Shown: positions 7,917 to 17,929, counted from the stretch's first letter. The stretch is DNA of 64,000 nucleotides from Terriglobia bacterium (GCA_963665655.1 OY762429.1:624503-688502), one strand, 5' to 3'. The notes: generated by a model not told the origin, from the sequence alone. A program made the numbers and translations.

Positions 7917-8798
7917 CTAGACGAATTCCTCCATCAGGTCGTCAAAGAGCTCCTTTTCCATTCCGAGCTTCTGATGAACCAGGGGACCGTCCTTCATGGC
8001 CGGTTCGCTCTCCTCGTAGGTCGGCTGCTCCTCCCGGTAGAAGAGGCCCAGGGGAATGCGATCCCCCCACTCGTAGGCCCGGGTCAAGGCTCCCTGATGG
8101 TCGGTGGCATCGTAGTCCGGGTCATCCTCCAGCTTGTAGACCCGCTTCTTGAACCAGGGGTAGGTGTTGATCTTGTTGTAGGTCACGCAGGGACTGAAGA
8201 CATCCACCAGGGCGAATCCCTTGTGGGCGATGCCGCCGGCGATGACGTCGGCCATGTGTCTGGGCTCCCCCGAAAAGGCCCGGGAAACGTAGGTGGCGCC
8301 GGAGACGATGGCCAGCGCGATGGGGTTGATCGGCATTTCGGCGTTGCCCCGGGGGGTGGACTTGGTGCGTACCTCCTTCATGGTGGTGGGGGAGGCCTGG
8401 CCGGTCGTCAACCCGTAGATCTGATTGTTCATGACGATGTAGGTGAGGTCCAGGTTGCGGCGCATGGCGTGCACGAAGTGACCCAGACCGATGCCGTACC
8501 CGTCGCCGTCCCCGCCGGTGATCACCACGTTCATGTCCTGGTTGGCGAACTTGATCCCGGAAGCCACGGCCACGGCCCGGCCGTGCAGGCTGTGGACGCC
8601 ATAGGCATGGATGTAGCCCGGCAGGTTGGAAGAGCAACCGATCCCGGAGACGGTGAACAGTTCCTCGGGCTTGATGCCCAGCTTTCCGGCCGCCATCTTG
8701 ACGCCCCTGAGAACACCGAAATCGCCACAGCCCGGACACCAGTCCGGATCGATGATGCTTTCATAGGTGCTGATGGGTAAAGAAATCGTCATTTCCAT
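7917..8798 (-). CDS. korB: 2-oxoacid:ferredoxin oxidoreductase, beta (TPP-binding) subunit.
   Basis: CPGCGDFGVL motif and a TPP-binding GDG region. 293 aa. Confidence 0.9.
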   Translation of the reverse strand: MEMTISLPISTYESIIDPDWCPGCGDFGVLRGVKMAAGKLGIKPEELFTVSGIGCSSNLPGYIHAYGVHSLHGRAVAVASGIKFANQDMNVVITGGDGDGYGIGLGHFVHAMRRNLDLTYIVMNNQIYGLTTGQASPTTMKEVRTKSTPRGNAEMPINPIALAIVSGATYVSRAFSGEPRHMADVIAGGIAHKGFALVDVFSPCVTYNKINTYPWFKKRVYKLEDDPDYDATDHQGALTRAYEWGDRIPLGLFYREEQPTYEESEPAMKDGPLVHQKLGMEKELFDDLMEEFV

Positions 8799-8920
8799 AG
8801 GGTGTTAAGCCTCTCCGTTCTCCCCGCGCCCGTTCAGCCGGCGCGGAACCTCAAATCCAAAGCGATTCCAAACCCGATCGATCAGTCGGTCGTGTCGCCG
8901 ACTTCCGTCGGTTGTCCCTC

Positions 8921-10915
8921 TCATTCGGCGGATACCGTCGAGACCGGCTGCCAGGCATAGGTGGATCCGGTTCGCTGCCCGACGAACAGGTCTCCGGTCT
9001 TTTCACCGCCCTTCCGGTTCACCAGTTCGATGCACCAGGTGGGCTCTTCCGCCGACACCCCGTTCCCCACCTGCATGGAGGCCGGACGCACGGCGTTGCC
9101 CAAATGGGTTCGAATGTAGTGGTAGGCGATCTCCTGGGCTTCCTCCCGAGTCACCTCCAGCGACAGCGGCTCGCCTCCTACGATCTCCTTGACCCGGTTC
9201 ACGATGAAGGCCGGCTCGAATGGCTCCCCGTCATACTTCAGGACCATGTCATCCAGGGAGAAGCCGGTCTCGGACCTCAAGTGCTTGGCGAACTGCCCCG
9301 TGTAGTTCACCTCCACGCCTATGGTCTTCCTGCATCCATTCAGGATTTCCAGGGCCTCCTTGGCGTGAAACGGCAGCAGGTACTTGAAATGGAGCTGATT
9401 GGCGGCAATGCCTTCCGATCTCAGGATCTCGGCGGCCTCCCGGATCACGCCCCTGCAGGACCCCCAGCCGACCAGGGTGACGTCCGCATCCTCCGGACCC
9501 TCGATTTGCGGAGGCGGCAGCTCCTTCAGGGCTCCTTCCAGCTTCCTCATGCGCTTTTCCTGCACCTTGCGCCGCACCGGTGGACTGGTGTACTCGTCGC
9601 TGATCAGAATCCCTTCCTCGTCGTGGTCATCGGTGGGAGAAACGTAGACCGTGTTCTTGGTCCCGGGCAGGGCTCGGGGGGATATTCCCGACTCGGTGAA
9701 AGCGTAGCGCTTGTAGGTGCCGTTGCCTTCCGGCCACTCGGTCACCAGTTGGCCCCGGTCGATCACCAGATCGGGCTTGAGCGCATCCCTCTCGATGGTC
9801 TCGGGATGTTCCGAGAGCAGCAGATCGGAGAGAATGATCACCGGGAGCTGGTACTTGTCCGCCAGGTTCAGGGCCTCGGCGGCGGTATAGTAGGCTTCGG
9901 TCACGTCCGCCGGAGCCATGATGATGCGGGGGAAATCCCCTTGGGAAGCCCCCAGCGCCTGGTTCAGATCGGCCTGTTCGGTCTTGGTGGGAATCCCGGT
10001 CGAAGGACCGCCGCGCTGGACCGTGATGAACACGACCGGCGCTTCGATCATGCCGGCCTGACCCACGGCCTCGGTCATCAGGGCAAACCCGCCGCCCGAG
10101 GTGGCGCACATGGAGCGGGCCCCGGCCAGGCCGGCGCCGACAGCCATGTTGGCGACCGCAATTTCGTCCTCGCACTGCTTGACCACGATCCCGCAGCGGT
10201 CGGCATGAGCCACCATCCAGTGCAGGATGGTGGAAGCGGGCGTCATGGGGTAGGCGGAATAGAACTTGCAGCCGGCGGCGACCGCACCCAGGGCCATGGC
10301 TTCGTTTCCGGTGATGAAGGGTCTGCGGATGCGGCTGAAGTTCCATTCATACCCCAGGGGCACGAATTTTTCCTTGGCGTAGTTGTATCCCGCCTTGGCC
10401 ACCTGGACGTTCTGGTTGACCACTTCCCGGCCCTTGTGCTGGAAGGTGTCGGCCAGGACTTCGGCCATCATCTCGAAATCCAGTCCCAGCAGGAAGATGG
10501 CCGCGCCCAGAGATACCGTGTTCTGCATGACGGGAAGCGTTTTCCCCAGCGGCTTCAGCAACTCCCGCACGGGCATCGGCACCGGCAGGACCTGACTCTC
10601 GAAAAGCGAGGAGTCCAGGGTCAGCTTGTCGGAATTGAACAGGACAGCTCCGCCGGGCTCCACTTCTCGGGCATGCCTTTCCAGGGTGTCCTGATTGAGA
10701 GCGATCAGCAGATTCAGGTGGTCTCCGTGAGAGTAGACCTTTTCCTCACCCATCCTCACGCGCAACCAGATGTGGCCCCCGCGGATGATGGACTGGTAAC
10801 TGTTGTAGGCATAGAGATACAGCCCCAAGCGGGAGGCGGTCTTGGCGAAGGTGTCGCCGGTCTTGTCCAGCCCGTCGCCGGCGGCTCCTCCTATTCCCAA
10901 GGTCACTTCTTTCAT
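8921..10915 (-). CDS. korA: 2-oxoacid:ferredoxin oxidoreductase, alpha subunit with the gamma domain fused at the N-terminus (two-subunit OFOR type).
   Basis: 664 aa. The N-terminal gamma-like GIGGAAGDG is followed by the alpha domain. Sits directly upstream of korB. Confidence 0.9.
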   Translation of the reverse strand: MKEVTLGIGGAAGDGLDKTGDTFAKTASRLGLYLYAYNSYQSIIRGGHIWLRVRMGEEKVYSHGDHLNLLIALNQDTLERHAREVEPGGAVLFNSDKLTLDSSLFESQVLPVPMPVRELLKPLGKTLPVMQNTVSLGAAIFLLGLDFEMMAEVLADTFQHKGREVVNQNVQVAKAGYNYAKEKFVPLGYEWNFSRIRRPFITGNEAMALGAVAAGCKFYSAYPMTPASTILHWMVAHADRCGIVVKQCEDEIAVANMAVGAGLAGARSMCATSGGGFALMTEAVGQAGMIEAPVVFITVQRGGPSTGIPTKTEQADLNQALGASQGDFPRIIMAPADVTEAYYTAAEALNLADKYQLPVIILSDLLLSEHPETIERDALKPDLVIDRGQLVTEWPEGNGTYKRYAFTESGISPRALPGTKNTVYVSPTDDHDEEGILISDEYTSPPVRRKVQEKRMRKLEGALKELPPPQIEGPEDADVTLVGWGSCRGVIREAAEILRSEGIAANQLHFKYLLPFHAKEALEILNGCRKTIGVEVNYTGQFAKHLRSETGFSLDDMVLKYDGEPFEPAFIVNRVKEIVGGEPLSLEVTREEAQEIAYHYIRTHLGNAVRPASMQVGNGVSAEEPTWCIELVNRKGGEKTGDLFVGQRTGSTYAWQPVSTVSAE

Positions 10916-11229: not shown

Positions 11230-11841
11230 CTAACAATAAATCAGCGTCTTCCTCAATCGGTGCGCCGACTCGGCCAGCGAGGGTTGCAGGTATGCCACCG
11301 GCTCCCCCTTCCGGCTGCGCGAAAGCGGACCCTCGGACCCGGGTTCGACCCGCACGGCCACGAACACCGGACCGGGTTCCCGGAGAATCGCGGGGAGGCT
11401 CCGGGCATAGAGCGCCGGATCATCGAAAGCGTAGGCCCTGCCAAACCCCGCCGCCCGGGCCATCCCGGCGAAGTCCATCCGGCCGGCGCCTGCAATGGCT
11501 TGATTTCCGGTAATTTCGTAGGTCCGATTCTCGACCGTGAAGAGGATCAGGTTGGGAGCTCCCGCCTCCACCACCGTCGCCAGGGAACCCAGAGTCATCA
11601 GGAGGCTGCCGTCACCGTTCAGGCAGATGACCCTGCGTTGGGGCTGGGCCAGGGCAATGCCCAGGGCCAGATCGGCAACGTGGCCCATGGCGCTGTCCGC
11701 CGAGGCGAAGTCCAACGGACTGTCCGAGAACCTGGACCAGGGCCGCACCACGCCCATGGTGGTCACCACCACCTCGTCCGTTCTCAGCGACGCCAGGGGT
11801 TGCAGCAATTCCTGCTTGGTCAACACGATCAGGCTCCGCAA
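11230..11841 (-). CDS. TPP-dependent decarboxylase, beta (C-terminal, TPP-binding) subunit, in the family of sulfopyruvate decarboxylase ComE and split phosphonopyruvate decarboxylase.
   Basis: ICLNGDGSLLM..., ~200 aa, no N-terminal pyrimidine-binding (PYR) domain. 13-bp overlap with the upstream gene. Confidence 0.75.
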   Translation of the reverse strand: MRSLIVLTKQELLQPLASLRTDEVVVTTMGVVRPWSRFSDSPLDFASADSAMGHVADLALGIALAQPQRRVICLNGDGSLLMTLGSLATVVEAGAPNLILFTVENRTYEITGNQAIAGAGRMDFAGMARAAGFGRAYAFDDPALYARSLPAILREPGPVFVAVRVEPGSEGPLSRSRKGEPVAYLQPSLAESAHRLRKTLIYC

Positions 11842-13061
11842 AAACAGGATTTGGCGGAGGGCTGGTACTCCAGCGTCAGTTCCGGAGTCTCCAGAGTGAG
11901 GCCTCCCTTGTTTTTGGATTCCACCCAGCGATCCAGAATGCCGGCGGCAATCCAGGCCCGTTCCGGTCGAACCGGACTTCGCGTGGATTGAATCAGGTCC
12001 TCGATCCGGGCGGCCAGGCAGGCCGAGCCGGCACGGTTGGGTTCAGGGGGAAGAAGGAACTGGGTCGATGCCACCCCGGAAACGTCGCGCAGACGGGCCG
12101 CAAAGGTGAAGTCCCCCACGGCTCCGTTGAGCATCAGCACCGCAGCCCTCACCCCGTCGGCATAGTCCACCAGGCAGGCTTCCGGGTGTTCGACCAGCCG
12201 GGGCAATTCCCCGCTGTTGACCAGGTCCCGGGGACGCCCGTCCTTCAAGGTCTCTCCCTGCAGGGAGTCGGAACGGGCCACGGCTGCTTGCAGCAGTTCC
12301 CGGGACCAACGACCGCTGCTGCCGGAGCGCCACACGGCTTGGCCACCCACCCATTGCACCGAACGTACTCCCGTTTCGCCGCCCCTGCGCCGCTCCACCA
12401 TGGCCTGCAGGGTTTCCAGGGCCCGGTAGCGATCGGAGCGCCCGAAGCCGATGCCAACCATCAGGGCCTGCTCCACCCGGCAGCCTGCCGGCAACTCCAG
12501 AGGCGGCAGCCTCCAGGTCATCGGCAGGGAGGATCCGGCCAGCACCGGGAACCCCAGTCGCCGGGAGGTCTCCACCATCTTGCGGGCCTGAGCCAGTCCG
12601 AGCGGTTCATCCCAATAGACCGGAACGGCCCGGCGGTCCTCCTCGAAGACCTTGAGCATCGGCTCGAGCAAGTCGGAGCCTGAAGGACCGCTGCCCGAAT
12701 CCTCTCCCTGGCCGGCGAGCATCAGCACCCCGTCCACGGCCAGCCGGTCCCCGCCGCAACGCAGGGTTTGGGCGACGGAAGGATAGATCCTGAAGCCGAA
12801 CTCGGCGGCGCGTTCCCGGCTCTGGTCCGCTTCAGGCGTGCGGTCCACATGGAGAGAGACCACATCCATGGCGGGCTGGTGCCACTTGCCCTCGCGCGGA
12901 TAGCCGATCAGGAAGCGGTCTGCGACCTGGCGGGCCGGCGAGCCGGGGGTCCAGCGGGAAGCCAGGATGGCCAACCTCATGGCGCCTGGCCGGGTTCGGA
13001 ACGGCAAACCGGCCACCGGGACAGCCGAGGCGGAATTCAGGAAGGTGCGCCTGCCCGTCAC
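11829..13061 (-). CDS. Tat-signal secreted protein of unknown family, paralog B of the next gene. Predicted to start at the GTG at 13059-13061 (TGRRTFLNSASAVPVAGL twin-arginine motif).
   Basis: Shares blocks with paralog A (PAMDVVSL, LAVDGVL, AGSSLPxxWRLPPLE.P, MVERRRGGETGV, EYADG). The GTGA stop/start overlap with paralog A was located by hand. Confidence 0.6.
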   Translation of the reverse strand: MTGRRTFLNSASAVPVAGLPFRTRPGAMRLAILASRWTPGSPARQVADRFLIGYPREGKWHQPAMDVVSLHVDRTPEADQSRERAAEFGFRIYPSVAQTLRCGGDRLAVDGVLMLAGQGEDSGSGPSGSDLLEPMLKVFEEDRRAVPVYWDEPLGLAQARKMVETSRRLGFPVLAGSSLPMTWRLPPLELPAGCRVEQALMVGIGFGRSDRYRALETLQAMVERRRGGETGVRSVQWVGGQAVWRSGSSGRWSRELLQAAVARSDSLQGETLKDGRPRDLVNSGELPRLVEHPEACLVDYADGVRAAVLMLNGAVGDFTFAARLRDVSGVASTQFLLPPEPNRAGSACLAARIEDLIQSTRSPVRPERAWIAAGILDRWVESKNKGGLTLETPELTLEYQPSAKSCFCGA

Positions 13062-14398
13062 GAGTGTCTCCGATAGGTGGGTTCGGGAGTGGGTCGATAG
13101 CGAACCGACAGGTGGGGCGTTTCGACTCGATGCTGGCCCCGCCACAGGGAATCCACGCCGGCCTCGGTCATTCCGCTGGTCAGCAGGGTCCGCTCCACCG
13201 GGTAGGTTGCCCTGCCGGTCAGAAACATCTTCTCGACGCCGTTCACCAGCGGGCTGAAGAAGTTGGCTTCGGCGCCCCCGCCCAACCCGCGCACCGGAAG
13301 GTAAAAGTGTGTTGAAACCAGTCGTTGCGGGTTTTTCAGACGGGCCGCAAAGGTCCAACCCATGGAGAGGCCTTCCAAAAGGAGCAGCGTGGCCTGCATC
13401 CCGTCGGCATATTCGCAGCGGAAGGCCAGAGGCTGATCCAGTTGAGGGCCGGAGTCGGTGACCCGGTCCTTGACCAGCCCGGGTATTTCCTCCAGGGACG
13501 GGTAGCTGTGGTCGAAGCCCTCCCGGGTCGAGGTCAGGGCCAGGCTGCGGCACAGGCAGGCCTCGAAGAGCTCGGGGGCCCAGCCTCCCCGGTCCCAGGA
13601 TCCCGCCCGCAGCGCCTCCCACACCTTGGGGCCGCGGACCGCTTGCAGCGCCGCCACACCGGTTTCACCTCCCCGCCGCCGCTCGACCATGCACTGCATC
13701 GCCTCGAATCCGTGAAAGCCGTAGCTGTCGGCCCCGCCGCCGGCGCCGATCACCATGGCCTCTTCCACCTCGGCGTCCGAGGGAATCTCCAACGGGGGAA
13801 GGCGCCAGGCCACGGGAATGCTGGAACCGGCCATCAAGGCAAAGTCCAGCTCCCTGGCCGTTTCCACCATCTCCTCGGCCCATTCCCATTTCCAGGAAAG
13901 ATGCTTGTCGTTGAACACCGGCGCGCCCCGGCCGCTTGCCCGGAAGACTTCCACGATCTGCCGGAAGAACTCGTAGCGCGGATACAGGGTCTGCCCCTTC
14001 TCGTTCCGGGGGTAGCTCCCGTGCTCTCCGATCAGCAGGACCCCGTCCACCGCCAGTCTGTCTCCACCCCGCGTCAAGGCTTCGGCGATGGTGGGATAGA
14101 TCTTCATGGAGGGATATTGGCGGGCCCGATCGCGGCTGAGATCGCTCTCCCGGACCTGTTCCACGTAGAGCGACACCACATCCATGGGGGGGCGGTGAAA
14201 TCGCCCGCCCCAGTTGTAGCCGCCCAGGAAGCGGTCCACGATATGCTGGCCGTGGGCCCGGCGGCGGTATTCGGTGACCAGGGCGGCGATCTTGGGGCGT
14301 TCGGGCTGCCCGGCGCGGCAGCCCGTGAGCAGCAGCGCCGCGGGAATCCCCGCCATCACCGTTCTGCGGGAAATCATTGGAAGCCGGGAAGAGGTCAT
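13058..14398 (-). CDS. Tat-signal (SRRTVMAGIPAALLLTGC, possible lipoprotein) secreted protein of unknown family, paralog A.
   Basis: 446-aa ORF. ATGA overlap with the upstream MBL gene. No recognisable named domain. Confidence 0.65.
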   Translation of the reverse strand: MTSSRLPMISRRTVMAGIPAALLLTGCRAGQPERPKIAALVTEYRRRAHGQHIVDRFLGGYNWGGRFHRPPMDVVSLYVEQVRESDLSRDRARQYPSMKIYPTIAEALTRGGDRLAVDGVLLIGEHGSYPRNEKGQTLYPRYEFFRQIVEVFRASGRGAPVFNDKHLSWKWEWAEEMVETARELDFALMAGSSIPVAWRLPPLEIPSDAEVEEAMVIGAGGGADSYGFHGFEAMQCMVERRRGGETGVAALQAVRGPKVWEALRAGSWDRGGWAPELFEACLCRSLALTSTREGFDHSYPSLEEIPGLVKDRVTDSGPQLDQPLAFRCEYADGMQATLLLLEGLSMGWTFAARLKNPQRLVSTHFYLPVRGLGGGAEANFFSPLVNGVEKMFLTGRATYPVERTLLTSGMTEAGVDSLWRGQHRVETPHLSVRYRPTPEPTYRRHS

Positions 14399-15366
14399 GG
14401 TCCGCCCAGAATTTCTCCGTGCGGCTTGCCCTCGGCGAGTTCCGCGTACCGCACCCGCACCTGTTCCGCAAACCGATTGCCGACCCAGTTGCCGACGTCG
14501 TCCGACAATTCCACGGTCGTGGCCACGCCGGCTCCGTCCTCCACCGTCACCAGGTCTTCCAAGGGCGTCTTGTCCTCAAAGGCCTTCTCCACGGCGGCGT
14601 TGATTTCCTGGAGGAACTGCCGCTGCCCTTCGGCAACCTCTCGCCCTCCCGAGGGGCCGTGGCCCGGCAGGATGGTTTCGAAGTCCAGCTCCAGGGCCTC
14701 GCTGACCACATTCGGCCAGTTGCCCGTGTTGCCGTCGCCGGTGTAGTTGAAGGGCCCGTTCACGATCGCGTCGCCCGTGCACAGGATCTTTTCGTCCGGC
14801 AGATAGACCATGCCGTCCCCGCGCGTGTGGGCCCATCCGAAGTGATGAAACTCCACCCGCCGGCCGGCTCCTTCCAGCACGTGCGGAACCCGGCTGAATG
14901 TCTCTTGCGGGGGTTGCACCGTATCCTCGCCCACGGCAGCCACATCCTCGCGGTTCCGCGCGGCTTGTTGCCAGCGGGCAGGCTCGTAGCGCTTCATCTC
15001 TTCGGCCACGCCGACATGTGCCAGCGTGGTGGCGCCGGCCCGGGTCCAGACCGCGTTGGCATAGGCATGGTCCCCGTGATGGTGGGTGCCGAACACGTAG
15101 CTGACCGGCTTGGTGGTGACCTGCCTGATATCCGCCATGAGCGCCCGGGCGCCGCTTGGGAAGTTGGCATCCACGACCAGCAGACCTTCTCCGATGTCGA
15201 TGACCACGTTGTTGCAGTGTCCGTGCTCTCGCTCGCCCATCCGGAACCAGACCCCGTCCGTAATCAGCTTGAGGGTGTCGGTCTCGGAAGGAAGCGGCGG
15301 ATCGGAGGCACAGTTCCAGGCCACGCAAAGGCCGATCGCGGTGACGGCTATGAGGACGATTCGCAT
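14395..15366 (-). CDS. MBL-fold metallo-hydrolase with a signal peptide.
   Basis: THHHGDHAYANAVW (HxHxDH) motif. 323 aa. Confidence 0.8.
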   Translation of the reverse strand: MRIVLIAVTAIGLCVAWNCASDPPLPSETDTLKLITDGVWFRMGEREHGHCNNVVIDIGEGLLVVDANFPSGARALMADIRQVTTKPVSYVFGTHHHGDHAYANAVWTRAGATTLAHVGVAEEMKRYEPARWQQAARNREDVAAVGEDTVQPPQETFSRVPHVLEGAGRRVEFHHFGWAHTRGDGMVYLPDEKILCTGDAIVNGPFNYTGDGNTGNWPNVVSEALELDFETILPGHGPSGGREVAEGQRQFLQEINAAVEKAFEDKTPLEDLVTVEDGAGVATTVELSDDVGNWVGNRFAEQVRVRYAELAEGKPHGEILGGP

Positions 15367-15447
15367 GGATCAGTCTCCCTCCGACAGTCTCGTCGTGGTT
15401 CCAAGTGGCACCGATTGTACGCCCTGAGTACCGCAGGTACAAGGATA

Positions 15448-15631
15448 GTGGAGAGTGGAGAGTGGAGAGTGATTAGTGGCTAGTTCTTGATCGACGCGTA
15501 AAGCATCTTGTTGGTCTCGGCAAAATCTTTCAAAGAGCCCACCCAAGTCATCAGGCGCTTGCCTGCTCCAGGAACCCTTGGCTGACAACTCTTCACTCTC
15601 CACTCTTCACTCTCCACTCTCCACTCTCCAC
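15448..15631. repeat. Inverted heptamer microsatellites. (GTGGAGA)3 lies at 15448-15471 and (CACTCTY)5-6 at 15588-15631. They are separated by ~115 bp and could form a long imperfect stem.
   Basis: Direct reading of the sequence. Confidence 0.65.
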
Positions 15632-15698
15632 TTGAACCGTTCAGCCCCCGGGGTATCCGTTCCGCCCAATCGATCCTCGCATTGACCGTCCCCCACTC

Positions 15699-15985
15699 TC
15701 AGGCCACCCAGATGTCCCGGCTGATGATCGACTCCGGTGTCAGAATCTCAGGGCCGGTTTCCTTCACCAGCACCACGTCCTCCAGTCCGTACTTGTTGCT
15801 CACCTCCCAGAGGGGATACCCCCCCGGTGGTAGAAGAAGGGCTCGATGCATAGCAGCAGGCCGTCAACACCGGACCGCTCCATCTCTTCCTGGAGCCGTC
15901 CCAGGCGCCGCTCGAACTCCCGCCGGCTGCAGTCGGCGAAAAATCCGCTTCGTTTCTGGGGGGTGATCTTCGGGCTGTCCGGCAT
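15699..15985 (-). pseudogene. M24 (Xaa-Pro aminopeptidase / creatinase-fold) peptidase remnant. The N-terminal ~45 aa (RRLGRLQEEMERSGVDGLLLCIEPFFYH) is joined out of frame to the C-terminal ~40 aa (GLEDVVLVKETGPEILT). The whole catalytic core is deleted.
   Basis: Hand translation of the two minus-strand frames. Confidence 0.45.
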
Positions 15986-16056
15986 GGATTCTCCCGGGCA
16001 ACAGGATGCAAGGGAGATCGTTGGATGGATTGGGACCGCCTGGGGCGGTCTCAATC

Positions 16057-16590
16057 TCAGGTCATGTCCCGGGTTACCAGCAGGGCGACCGGAGTCGACA
16101 AACGATGGGCCTTCTCGACCCAGGCGTTGACCTTGGGAACGTCCTCATCGCCATGGAGGTAATCGAAGGGCAACCCCCAGGCCTGCAAGGTGGGCTCGGT
16201 GAGCAGCGCCGCCGAGTCCAGGTCGGGACGGCTCAGCAGTAGCGGGTCGGGTTCGCCGGAGCGGTGCCTGACGCGTTCCAGCTTGGCATAGCCCCGAAAG
16301 GTGATCAGACAGAGAAGGGGGATCCTCATCCGCAGGACCGTGCCGCGAAAGCTGTCCCCGCTCTCGAGCAAGCCGGTGTTCTGAATCAGGACGGCCGGGG
16401 CCCGGCCTCCCATCCAAAGCCCGGCTGCCATGGCGAAAGCCTCCCCTTCACGGGTGACCAGGCGGATAACGGGCTCTCCGCCCTCCTTCAGAAGGGAGAA
16501 CAGGGCCGCCGAGCTGTTGTCGGGCAATCCCACCAGGTCGGTGACTCCCGCCCTGCAGAGCGCCCCGACAATGGACCGGGCCTTGGCCAT
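16057..16590 (-). CDS. TPP-dependent decarboxylase, alpha (N-terminal, pyrimidine-binding) subunit, in the family of sulfopyruvate decarboxylase ComD and split phosphonopyruvate decarboxylase.
   Basis: 177 aa with a PYR-domain pattern (TDLVGLPDNSSAALF..., EGEAFAMAAGLW). Sits 4 bp downstream of the PQQ-propeller gene. Confidence 0.75.
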   Translation of the reverse strand: MAKARSIVGALCRAGVTDLVGLPDNSSAALFSLLKEGGEPVIRLVTREGEAFAMAAGLWMGGRAPAVLIQNTGLLESGDSFRGTVLRMRIPLLCLITFRGYAKLERVRHRSGEPDPLLLSRPDLDSAALLTEPTLQAWGLPFDYLHGDEDVPKVNAWVEKAHRLSTPVALLVTRDMT

Positions 16591-16594
16591 GACG

Positions 16595-17929
16595 CTATCT
16601 CAAAGCCAGGTCGAAGCAAGCCATTTCCTGGGAATTTCGAACCAGCAGCAACCCTTCGGAGATGGCCGGGTGATTCCAGGTCCTGCCCCGAATCGCGGAG
16701 AAGCGGGCCAGCTCCTGCTGCCGCTCGGGGTCGGCCTCGACCAGCACCAGTTCGCCCGACTCGGTCAGGACGATCAGGTGATCTCCAGCCAGCAGAAGCT
16801 GTCCATGCCCGTAGCGGCCCCCCTTCCACCTGAGTTCGCCGGTCTCGGCCCGGATGCAGGCCAGGATGCCTTCGTCCAGCCCGTAGATAAACCCGTCCTT
16901 CAGCACCGAGCAGGTGAACTTGTTCTTCATGCGGCGATTCTGCCACAAGGCGCTGGCCGCAAGACCTCCGGAAGTCCGTTGCACCTGCACCACCGCCGCG
17001 CCGTGGCCGTAGCCCGCCGAGATGAAGACCCGATCCTGTCCCAACAGGATCGGTTGGGCGACGTTGACGTCATAGTCGGTGATCCAGGGAAAATCCCAGA
17101 GGAGAGACCCATCCTCGCCCGAGAGCCCCATCATCCGCCTGGCGCTCACAATCAGAAGCTGGGGTTGTCCGGCCAGGGTCACCCACATGGGCGAGGTGTA
17201 GGCCTGCTTGTCACTCAGCGATTTCCACAAGGCATTCCCCGTCTCCTTGTGGTAGGCCGCCACCGATCTGCCGCGGGAACCTCCCGGCAGGACAATGACC
17301 TTCTCACCCACGATCAGGGGCGAAGCCGACATGCCCCAGGTCAGGTTCCTGGCCCGACTGTCCCGCAGAATGTTTCGAGACCAGACCAGGTGCCCCTCGG
17401 AGGCATCCAGGCAGTGCAGCTCTCCGGTGGCTCCCAGCGCGTAGAGTCGGCCCTGGTGCCAGGTGGGAGTGGCCCGGGGCCCGTCCCCACCCAGGGACTC
17501 GTCGAAGAAGGCCTCCCAGGCATGGGTCCAGATCTCATCTCCCGTCCGTAACTCGTAAGCCGCCACCACTTCCCGGGCGCCGCGCTGCTCGATGGTGAAG
17601 GCCCGCCCCTCGGCCAGAACAAAGGAGGCATACCCCCCGCCGACGGTTCGGCGCCAGAGGGGTTTCAGCCCCTGCTCGGGCCAACGGGTGAGGATGGGGG
17701 CTCCCCGATATTGGCCGTCGCGCCTCGGCCCCCTGAAATCGGTCCATTCCTCGGCTGTCGAGGGGGCCGCCGATGCGGTCCCCGCAATGCCGGCAATGGC
17801 AGGAGGCAGAGCAGCCCCCGATGGCCTGGTCTCACTCTCCTTCCAAAACGGGATCAATGCCAAGGGAGCCAGCGCCCCACATGCCAGACCCCGCATCAGG
17901 CTCGAACGCATCCAGGCTTTCAGGATCAT
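16595..17929 (-). CDS. PQQ-like beta-propeller repeat protein (BamB-like) with a signal peptide.
   Basis: Repeated W-propeller blades. 444 aa. Confidence 0.75.
   Translation of the reverse strand: MILKAWMRSSLMRGLACGALAPLALIPFWKESETRPSGAALPPAIAGIAGTASAAPSTAEEWTDFRGPRRDGQYRGAPILTRWPEQGLKPLWRRTVGGGYASFVLAEGRAFTIEQRGAREVVAAYELRTGDEIWTHAWEAFFDESLGGDGPRATPTWHQGRLYALGATGELHCLDASEGHLVWSRNILRDSRARNLTWGMSASPLIVGEKVIVLPGGSRGRSVAAYHKETGNALWKSLSDKQAYTSPMWVTLAGQPQLLIVSARRMMGLSGEDGSLLWDFPWITDYDVNVAQPILLGQDRVFISAGYGHGAAVVQVQRTSGGLAASALWQNRRMKNKFTCSVLKDGFIYGLDEGILACIRAETGELRWKGGRYGHGQLLLAGDHLIVLTESGELVLVEADPERQQELARFSAIRGRTWNHPAISEGLLLVRNSQEMACFDLALR

Follow-up and report, generated by a model that had tools for sequence, protein, structure and literature searches.

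The present analysis concerns two adjacent genes, here called A and B, on the minus strand of a 64,000-nucleotide stretch of DNA from a Terriglobia bacterium (GCA_963665655.1 OY762429.1:624503-688502), referred to below as the window. A preliminary description of the locus had presented them as tandem paralogues of an unrecognised family, both with twin-arginine signals and translationally coupled by a GTGA overlap. The two proteins were found to be 36% identical over their whole length (BLASTP, E 6e-77), far beyond chance, and no further copy of the A/B family was found within the 64-kb window. The GTG start of B (13061-13059) and the TGA stop of A (13060-13058) were read directly in the sequence, where A ends with ...CGG AGA CAC TCG TGA. 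A and B are translationally coupled through this overlap, as had been described.

The GTG start that had been proposed for B was upheld by its context. A GGAG lies 6 nt upstream, the gene call is exactly 410 aa long in approximately 70 database clusters of B orthologues, and the GTGA junction and the peptide VTGRRTFL are retained in the closest genomes, those of a Terriglobia metagenome-assembled genome (MAG; locus L001, A 94% identical) and of Candidatus Versatilivorator (locus L002, A 87% identical). In both of these genomes the internal Met of the window's B is replaced by Lys, and therefore no alternative ATG start exists there. A 1-nt overlap of A and B was found in L003, L005 and L007, and the B of L003 begins ATG-LGRRPFL. 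The 597-aa open reading frame (ORF) 11829..13622 (minus strand) contains B, but the 187 codons with which it begins, ahead of the GTG, run out of frame across the 3' end of A and do not belong to B, in agreement with the earlier remark that the ORF overstates the gene. The features of the locus are collected in Table 1.

Table 1. Genes and sequence features at the A-B locus, with positions counted from the first letter of the window.
Feature	Position	Strand	Basis or remark
Gene A: A-type subunit, Gfo/Idh/MocA-like predicted fold, family's polar constellation retained	13058..14398	minus	ORF, ATG start, 446 aa
Gene B: B-type subunit, probably degenerate (pseudoenzyme) paralogue in the window's clade	11829..13061	minus	410 aa from GTG
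GTGA overlap of B's GTG start and A's TGA stop	13058..13061	minus	read in sequence
GGAG, Shine-Dalgarno-like, 5' of B's GTG	13068..13071	minus	read in sequence
Predicted Tat-lipoprotein signal of A, residues 1-27: S-R-R-T-V-M, hydrophobic region, lipobox L-T-G-C27	14318..14398	minus	sequence motif
Predicted Tat signal of B, residues 1-27: G-R-R-T-F-L-N, weakly hydrophobic region, c-region RTRPGA	12981..13061	minus	sequence motif
A residues 48-52, A-H-G-Q-H (family S-H-A-[QD]-x), N-terminus of helix alphaA	14243..14257	minus	secondary structure of model
A residues E125-H126 of family motif E-H-G-x-Y-P	14021..14026	minus	alignment
A residues D164-K165-H166, candidate counterpart of E-K-P	13901..13909	minus	profile vs 6z3b, invariant in A-types
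A residues D224...H229, putative catalytic Asp/His pair, start of C-terminal domain	13712..13729	minus	conservation, place in fold
A residues 239-247, E-R-R-R-G-G-E-T-G, family-specific loop	13658..13684	minus	kept in both subunits including degenerate B
Metallo-beta-lactamase (MBL)-fold gene, 323 aa, Sec/lipoprotein-like N-terminus, upstream of A	14395..15366	minus	stop overlaps A start (ATGA)
C-terminal TPP (thiamine pyrophosphate)-binding half of split ComE/Ppd-like decarboxylase, downstream of B	11230..11841	minus	linked to pair in L001-L003, L008/L090
N-terminal half of same split TPP decarboxylase (ComD-like)	16057..16590	minus	directly abuts A in L003/L092

Both proteins begin with a predicted signal for twin-arginine translocation (Tat), and the earlier statement of twin-arginine N-termini stands at the level of the motif. 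Protein A starts MTSSRLPMISRRTVMAGIPAALLLTGC, and in its N-terminal segment (ISRRTVMAGIPAALLLTGC) the RR pair is followed by 15 uncharged residues and by a lipobox, L-T-G-C (LLTGC), in accordance with the pattern [LVI][ASTVI][GAS]C closing a signal peptide. The twin-arginine motif, the hydrophobic stretch and the lipobox of A are all conserved in L001, L002 and L003, in which the lipobox reads LSGC, LMGC and FMGC, respectively. Cytoplasmic homologues of A begin at approximately query residue 33. Protein B starts (M)TGRRTFLNSASAVPVAGLPFRTRPGA; its N-terminus, TGRRTFLNSASAVPVAGLPF-RTRPGA, holds an RRxFL near the consensus, with 16 uncharged residues between the RR pair and a basic c-region, and this segment is kept as coding sequence in L001 and L002.

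No named sequence family was found for either protein. Protein A had no Pfam or NCBIfam match (hmmscan), none of PF01408, PF02894 and PF22725 was matched by A or B in hmmscan up to E = 1, a sequence search of the Protein Data Bank (PDB) with A alone was empty, and no description of the A/B family was found in the literature searches. The only hit of B, to Pfam DUF374 (E 0.042; 13.9 bits, with a family cut-off of 26.8 bits), was at chance level and was rejected. Homologues in the 90% identity collection numbered at least 8000 for A and at least 3603 for B, and a profile search gave a family size of at least 3,762 clusters at 50% identity. The family is common in Acidobacteriota, Planctomycetota, Poribacteria, Latescibacterota and Chloroflexota, with 60-70% identity between phyla. 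Among the matches listed, every homologue with a name from its source is a 'hypothetical protein', and of the approximately 360 homologues listed nearly all have '-' in the precomputed Pfam field, the one exception, P0469, carrying PF01244.

In contrast, the predicted structure could be placed. When a model of A was built with AlphaFold (AF2) from 43 sequences (predicted local distance difference test (pLDDT) score 88.2; predicted template modelling (pTM) score 0.87) and compared with the PDB by Foldseek, the top 50 matches were all of the Gfo/Idh/MocA fold, with E values of 4e-12 to 1e-9, a probability of 1.0 and 9-14% identity. They included GenD2 (6nor), KanD2, the myo-/scyllo-inositol dehydrogenases 3nt2 and 4mie, and glucose-fructose oxidoreductase (GFOR, 1ofg), as well as SqgA (8qc6), DgpA (7xre), NAD-dependent sulfoquinovosidases, Gal80 and biliverdin reductase. 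The two-domain architecture of these proteins, an N-terminal Rossmann-like domain and a C-terminal alpha/beta domain with a large sheet, was also seen in the model of A. A search of PDB sequences with the family profile gave one weak match, the Gfo/Idh/MocA oxidoreductase 6z3b (E 0.036); no match was obtained by hhalign between the family profile and a single canonical Gfo/Idh/MocA protein from L087, a template too shallow to serve as evidence either way. As judged from the models, A and B are a very divergent branch of the Gfo/Idh/MocA oxidoreductase superfamily, and their fold is known. The family is therefore unrecognised, as the preliminary description had it, in the sense that Pfam, NCBIfam and PDB sequences offer no name for it and that the structure search gives no assignment at family level; at superfamily level the assignment is known (Foldseek E ~1e-12, probability 1.0). 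Its further proposal of a new periplasmic enzyme or binding-protein family has to be narrowed, since a binding protein is unlikely and 'periplasmic' fails family-wide, approximately half of the pairs being without a signal.

The cleft of A differs from that of canonical enzymes first at strand beta1, after which the segment 48-52 occupies the place of GxGxxG. No conserved Gly of a GxGxx[GAS] motif was found after this strand in 116 diverse representatives; A reads KIAALV-TEYRRRA-HGQH, the family consensus of the beta1 loop is [RK][IV]A..xT.Y...SHAD, and 105 of the 116 have S48, as 105 have H49. E125-H126 is invariant in A-type sequences (78 of 78) and present in 69 of 73 B-type sequences, and its two residues are kept in 107 and 103 of 116 distant representatives, respectively. 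In the weak profile alignment with 6z3b (E 0.036), 'vpvfNDKHLsw' of the family stands opposite 'vnvfCEKPial', and therefore the invariant D164-K165-H166 would be the counterpart of E-K-P. The motif N-D-K-H corresponds to residues 163-166 of A; D-K-H is invariant in A-types, the Lys is retained in 107 of 116 representatives, and the window's B departs from the motif with W-D-E-P at the E-K-P site. D224 and H229 are likewise invariant in A-types and kept in 69 of 73 B-types; among the 116 distant representatives, 107 have D or E at position 224 and 106 retain H229. Their position in the fold, taken from the order of secondary-structure elements, marks them as a putative catalytic pair. The signature of the family is S-H, E-H-G-x-Y-P, D-K-H, R199, [DE]-x4-H-x2-E and E-R-R-x-G-G-E-x-G, and the E-R-R-R-G-G-E-T-G loop of A may have its role at the subunit interface or in the fold.

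When one genome per species was surveyed (80 loci from Acidobacteriota, Planctomycetota, Poribacteria, Latescibacterota, Chloroflexota (Caldilineaceae) and Gemmatimonadota), an A-type gene followed by a B-type gene on the same strand was found in 77 of 80 loci, across all six phyla. The gap was mostly below 150 nt and overlaps were frequent; in one exception, L080, the locus is cut off by a contig end. The tandem pairing of homologues, which the preliminary description had raised as a point to be checked, is thereby borne out. Moreover, A-types and B-types separate cleanly into two orthologous groups that differ at many type-specific positions, and the nearest neighbour of each unfused sequence is of its own type. 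A reads into B as a single ORF in 11 of 73 loci, and a search with one fusion returned approximately 80 clusters of 808-851 aa that are natural A-linker-B fusions, from Fuerstiella, Bryobacteraceae and Caldilineaceae. When the fusion P0404 was modelled with AlphaFold from an alignment of 72 natural fusions, the structure was compact (pLDDT 89.4, pTM 0.88 over 835 residues) and gave the same Foldseek outcome as the model of A; a pTM of 0.88 indicates that the halves are not arbitrarily placed. Only fusions were used in this alignment, and a mixed alignment with single A and B, in which B-types fell on the A half, was discarded. These findings point to a physical complex in which A and B would be an obligate heterodimer.

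Independent support came from the distribution of the twin-arginine signal. Seventeen loci carry it on A alone, 10 on B alone and eight, the window among them, on both subunits, and approximately 43 have none; four false positives of the Tat regular expression ('PRRLAVIATIY' in L052, L053 and L066; also L065) had been taken out of these counts. On inspection by eye, signal-less partners begin at most 10 residues from strand beta1 (e.g. MKRIAIV, MATRPKLAAI). In hitchhiker export, two subunits cross the membrane together as a folded complex although only one of them bears a signal (PMC4273604, PMC10924467, PMC6719666). A signal on one partner only is the hallmark of this process and argues both for the heterodimer and for Tat over Sec. 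It occurs in the relatives, at the 17 A-only and 10 B-only loci; in the window both subunits bear a signal, and export there would be Tat dependent. Approximately half of the pairs are evidently cytoplasmic, and therefore a periplasmic location is a trait of lineages and not of the family. In the acidobacterial loci L005 and L007, moreover, it is the Tat signal of the B-type that closes with a lipobox (…AAHLGC…), so that the membrane anchor has changed subunit just as the signal has.

The two subunits of the window are not equivalent, and on this point the preliminary description is to be corrected. In 69 of 73 B-types the conserved cleft residues are all as in A-types, and only the window, L001, L002 and L003, a clade of Versatilivoraceae and a Terriglobia MAG, have lost them. 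In the B of this clade the changes are H49P, Q51R and H52Q near strand beta1; E125G, H126Q, Y129D, Q136G and the loss of Y-P-R 139-141 in the E-H-G-x-Y-P region; N163W, K165E and H166P in the D-K-H region; and D224R, D227R and H229R at the Asp/His pair. The number of conserved cleft positions lost by replacement or deletion is at least 14, and these losses were seen nowhere but in the window and L001-L003. The scaffold residues and the E-R-R-R-G-G-E-T-G loop were retained. B of the window's clade is 51% identical to other B-types, compared to 72% among those others. The ratio of nonsynonymous to synonymous substitution rates (dN/dS) was 0.27-0.36 for B and 0.16-0.25 for A, and approximately 75 clusters of intact B orthologues were found. 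B of this clade is under purifying selection and, on these sequence comparisons, probably a non-catalytic pseudoenzyme. Some contigs with the degenerate pair hold a second B-type which is 50-52% identical to the window's B, approximately as distant as canonical B-types; examples are a 5,235,193-bp contig (P0343, P0370) and a 4,611,685-bp contig (P0288, P0384), and L007 holds a second pair, on a 5,989,343-bp Versatilivorator contig, the same size as the contig of P0286. This suggests that the degenerate pair is an additional copy that has become specialised.

Domain fusions in distant members of the family give hints of its chemistry. They join it to cytochrome c (P0154, P0179), to a glucose/sorbosone dehydrogenase (GSDH) of the pyrroloquinoline quinone (PQQ) type (P0179), to a 7-bladed lactonase (P0268), to a 3-keto-disaccharide hydrolase (P0145, P0177), to an NAD-dependent epimerase (P0255, P0256, P0261) and to an esterase (P0224), and genes for GH95, GH109-like, BNR and CBM9 proteins lie in some neighbourhoods. 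These fusions and neighbourhoods fit the oxidation or redox-assisted processing of sugars or glycosides, which is the usual business of the fold.

Taken together, the findings lead us to consider it reasonably probable that the window encodes a heterodimeric module of Gfo/Idh/MocA fold which is Tat-exported in this organism and in which B is a pseudoenzyme. A and B would be co-translated via the GTGA, fold and pair in the cytoplasm, and leave as a folded complex through the Tat pathway, to be tethered to the membrane by the lipobox cysteine of A. A would be the catalytic subunit, using K165, D224 and H229 within a conserved cleft made up of S/A-H after strand beta1, E-H-G-x-Y-P, D-K-H in place of E-K-P, Arg199 and Asp224...His229. 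B may serve as a structural (scaffold) or regulatory pseudoenzyme partner, a role suggested by its retained scaffold and E-R-R-R-G-G-E-T-G loop. By analogy with periplasmic GFOR, the likeliest reaction would be one that oxidises a sugar, glycoside or polyol or transforms it with the help of redox chemistry. It is in this sense that we infer the catalysis, substrate class and cofactor of the A-B pair; sugar-dehydrogenase chemistry specifically is a tentative assignment, somewhat more doubtful than the architecture.

Several points weigh against this reading. Family-wide, the glycine-rich loop is missing, and therefore canonical NAD(P) binding and a classical dehydrogenase mechanism are doubtful. 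The family is not joined to PF01408 by sequence methods, and the link to the superfamily consists of predicted structure and the one weak profile match. The heterodimer model derives from the natural fusion of another species and not from the window's A and B. Tat assignments were made from motifs ([ST]-R-R-x-F-L-K-like, followed by at least approximately 13 uncharged residues); the hydrophobic region of B is weak, and that of the L001 copy contains an Arg, because of which the signal of B may be weak or vestigial. Finally, no partner gene was found in more than approximately 13% of loci, either by ORF clustering (81 loci) or in a Pfam scan of 130 flanking ORFs, in which the counts were PhyH 10, Peptidase_M19 6, aldo/keto reductase 6 and ABC_tran 3. 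Gene context therefore assigns no pathway.

The alternative that survives best is that the nicotinamide site has been swapped for a metal centre or another redox cofactor, held by H49, E125, H126, D164, H166, D/E224 and H229, from which electrons would pass to c-type cytochromes and not to NAD(P). We regard it as unlikely, though worth serious consideration. It would account for the family-wide absence of GxGxxG, for a cleft rich in conserved His, Asp and Glu, for the direct fusions to cytochrome c and for export through Tat, which is typical of proteins loaded with their cofactor before export. However, approximately half of the pairs are cytoplasmic, and GFOR, an NADP-bound enzyme of the same fold, also travels via Tat. 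D80, the acidic residue closing strand beta2, is also kept, and an acidic residue at the end of this strand usually binds ribose. A wider version, to which we give the same limited credence, would see in the family an unrecognised and environmentally widespread enzyme class which has given up the glycine loop for a His/Glu/Asp/Lys-lined cleft with a different cofactor, functions only as a paralogous alpha/beta pair, delivers sugar electrons to periplasmic c-type cytochromes, carries the Tat signal on either subunit and has made beta a pseudoenzyme in one acidobacterial clade.

That the pair has no catalytic function, being a ligand-binding or regulatory module with a Gfo/Idh/MocA fold of the Gal80 type or the periplasmic binding protein of the preliminary description, is improbable. 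Gal80 is among the structural matches, the cofactor motif is not recognisable and the window's B is clearly no enzyme. On the other hand, the fold differs from that of periplasmic solute-binding proteins, a type that does not occur among the best Foldseek matches shown, and ABC transporters do not regularly lie beside the pair (3 of 130 flanking ORFs). Moreover, polar residues at catalytic positions, among them the EKP-motif Lys and the Asp/His pair, show extreme conservation across phyla, and the family is fused to lactonase, cytochrome c and 3-keto-disaccharide hydrolase domains. The identity of a binding protein is accordingly unlikely.

It is distinctly improbable that A and B are independent enzymes which arose by tandem duplication and act alone or as homodimers, their adjacency being only an operon habit. 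Canonical Gfo/Idh/MocA enzymes are homo-oligomers, and in most lineages the cleft residues are complete in both subunits, as this explanation would have it. Against it stand the fixed A-then-B order in 77 of 80 loci across six phyla, the recurrent natural fusions, the 27 loci with a Tat signal on a single partner, the compact fusion model (pTM 0.88) and the selection that maintains a degenerate B. Least probable of all is that B is a decaying gene, or initiates at an in-frame internal ATG (12980) just ahead of strand beta1 without a Tat signal so that the second signal is an artefact, as its weak hydrophobic region and lost cleft might suggest, because dN/dS is 0.27-0.36 and the ORF is intact in approximately 75 clusters, L001 and L002 have Lys at the internal Met yet keep VTGRRTFL and GTGA, the GGAG sits 6 nt 5' of the GTG, and B-types elsewhere (L005, L007, L016, L023, L051) have clear Tat signals.

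The exported heterodimer with a degenerate B, which is the reading preferred here, lies in the window among genes of other families. In the window's clade, the A-B pair, together with the MBL gene, stands between the two halves of the TPP decarboxylase, and in the Pirellulaceae-like lineage of contigs L008 and L090 the order is DHDPS (dihydrodipicolinate synthase)-type aldolase, TPP_N, TPP_C, A, B. Besides the window, the observation on the split enzyme covers L003, L092, L008, L090 and L091. The split TPP enzyme is sulfopyruvate/phosphonopyruvate-decarboxylase-like, with all NCBIfam scores under the curated cut-offs. The link may hint at a downstream keto-acid step that is lineage-specific, being confined to the window's clade and one Pirellulaceae lineage; a function of A and B built on it was considered and rejected, the association being real but restricted to these lineages. 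The TPP_C gene is listed from TTG 11841, with a 13-nt overlap with B; a GTG at 11826, which lies 2 nt past the TGA of B and has its own GGAG 7 nt upstream, is the likelier start.

The MBL gene is present in L001 and L002 and absent from L003 and L092, and is therefore no core part of the module. The nearest match of its product (14395-15366) is the SoxH-related 'quinoprotein relay system zinc metallohydrolase', below the cut-off. The 690-nt gap between the ComD-like and MBL genes (15367-16056, minus strand) contains M24 peptidase/creatinase-like remnants in two frames (FERRLGRLQEEMERSGVDGLLL, YGLEDVVLVKETGPEILT) and a short DNA repeat coding for 'GEWRV[EK]S'. Both this stretch and the MBL gene are missing from L003 and L092, so that the region looks like an insertion with a decayed gene. 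Two genes upstream of the MBL gene, at 16595-17929 (minus strand), lies a gene for a PQQ_2 beta-propeller protein with a weak 'acido-empty-quinoprotein' match, whose stop is 4 nt ahead of the ComD-like gene. Downstream of the cluster, at 7917-10915 (minus strand), lie two genes for a 2-oxoacid:ferredoxin oxidoreductase, one encoding an alpha subunit of 664 aa and the other a beta subunit of 293 aa, with 89-99% identity in L001-L003.

Two families recur near the pair elsewhere. A Peptidase_M19 (membrane dipeptidase) gene was found beside it in L089 (6784-7977) and among 6 of 130 flanking ORFs in L003-L079, and in P0469 Peptidase_M19 is on the same predicted protein as the family member. CN_hydrolase genes lie no more than a few kb away in L081, L085 and L087, three contexts that are unrelated to one another. 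This recurrence could be chance or a hint of a nitrogen-containing substrate.

The placement of the fold, the two-subunit architecture and the signature motifs make a family of 'hypothetical' proteins ready for annotation and experiment. The family is large, with at least 3,762 clusters at 50% and more than 8,000 at 90% identity, and occurs widely in poorly studied environmental phyla. It also constitutes a natural Tat experiment, in which the same complex is found with a signal on one or other subunit or on both, without any signal, or as one fused chain, and a case of pseudoenzyme evolution, in which one partner of a paralogous heterodimer is without an active site and still under selection. 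Should the cofactor prove not to be NAD(P), a cofactor switch inside a classic Rossmann-type family would be of general interest.

Among known systems, GFOR-type enzymes are periplasmic, bear a twin-arginine signal, are folded before export and oxidise sugars. GFOR of Zymomonas mobilis and the Caulobacter aldose-aldose oxidoreductase (1ofg, 1h6d, 5a02) resemble A and B in their two-domain fold and in a catalytic Lys at the same position (EKP, compared to DKH of A). GFOR differs in being homo-oligomeric, in having a GxGxxG loop, in binding NADP tightly and in being recognised by PF01408, whereas A and B have no glycine loop and no Pfam match, are 9-14% identical to it, occur in fixed pairs or fusions and have approximately 100 extra residues. 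The family relationship of these enzymes has been described (PMC4628093). The best structural matches to A, GenD2/KanD2 and the myo-inositol dehydrogenases (6nor, 6jw7, 3nt2, 4mie; target-normalised TM-score 0.65-0.72), have Lys and Asp/His positions in common with it by place in the fold, but they are cytoplasmic, NAD-dependent homo-oligomers whose sequence similarity to A is undetectable.

SqgA sulfoquinovosidases (8qc6, 8zn9) and DgpA (7xre), which carry out NAD-dependent non-Koshland glycoside cleavage, have the fold of A, and their theme recurs in the A/B family in fusions to or neighbourhoods with 3-keto-disaccharide hydrolase domains and glycoside hydrolases. In contrast to A and B, they have canonical NAD sites and are not paralogous heterodimers. 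The Tat hitchhikers (hydrogenase small/large subunits, PaoABC and the gamma/alpha subunits of FAD-glucose dehydrogenase) follow the same logic as the 27 single-signal loci; there, however, the partners are unrelated and the signal-bearing subunit is fixed, whereas in the A/B family the partners are paralogous and the signal has shifted between them or, as in the window, onto both, according to lineage. The fold and the export logic are thus already known; what is new is a large unannotated branch without the dinucleotide loop, with an obligate paralogous A/B architecture, a wandering Tat signal and a clade-specific pseudoenzyme subunit.

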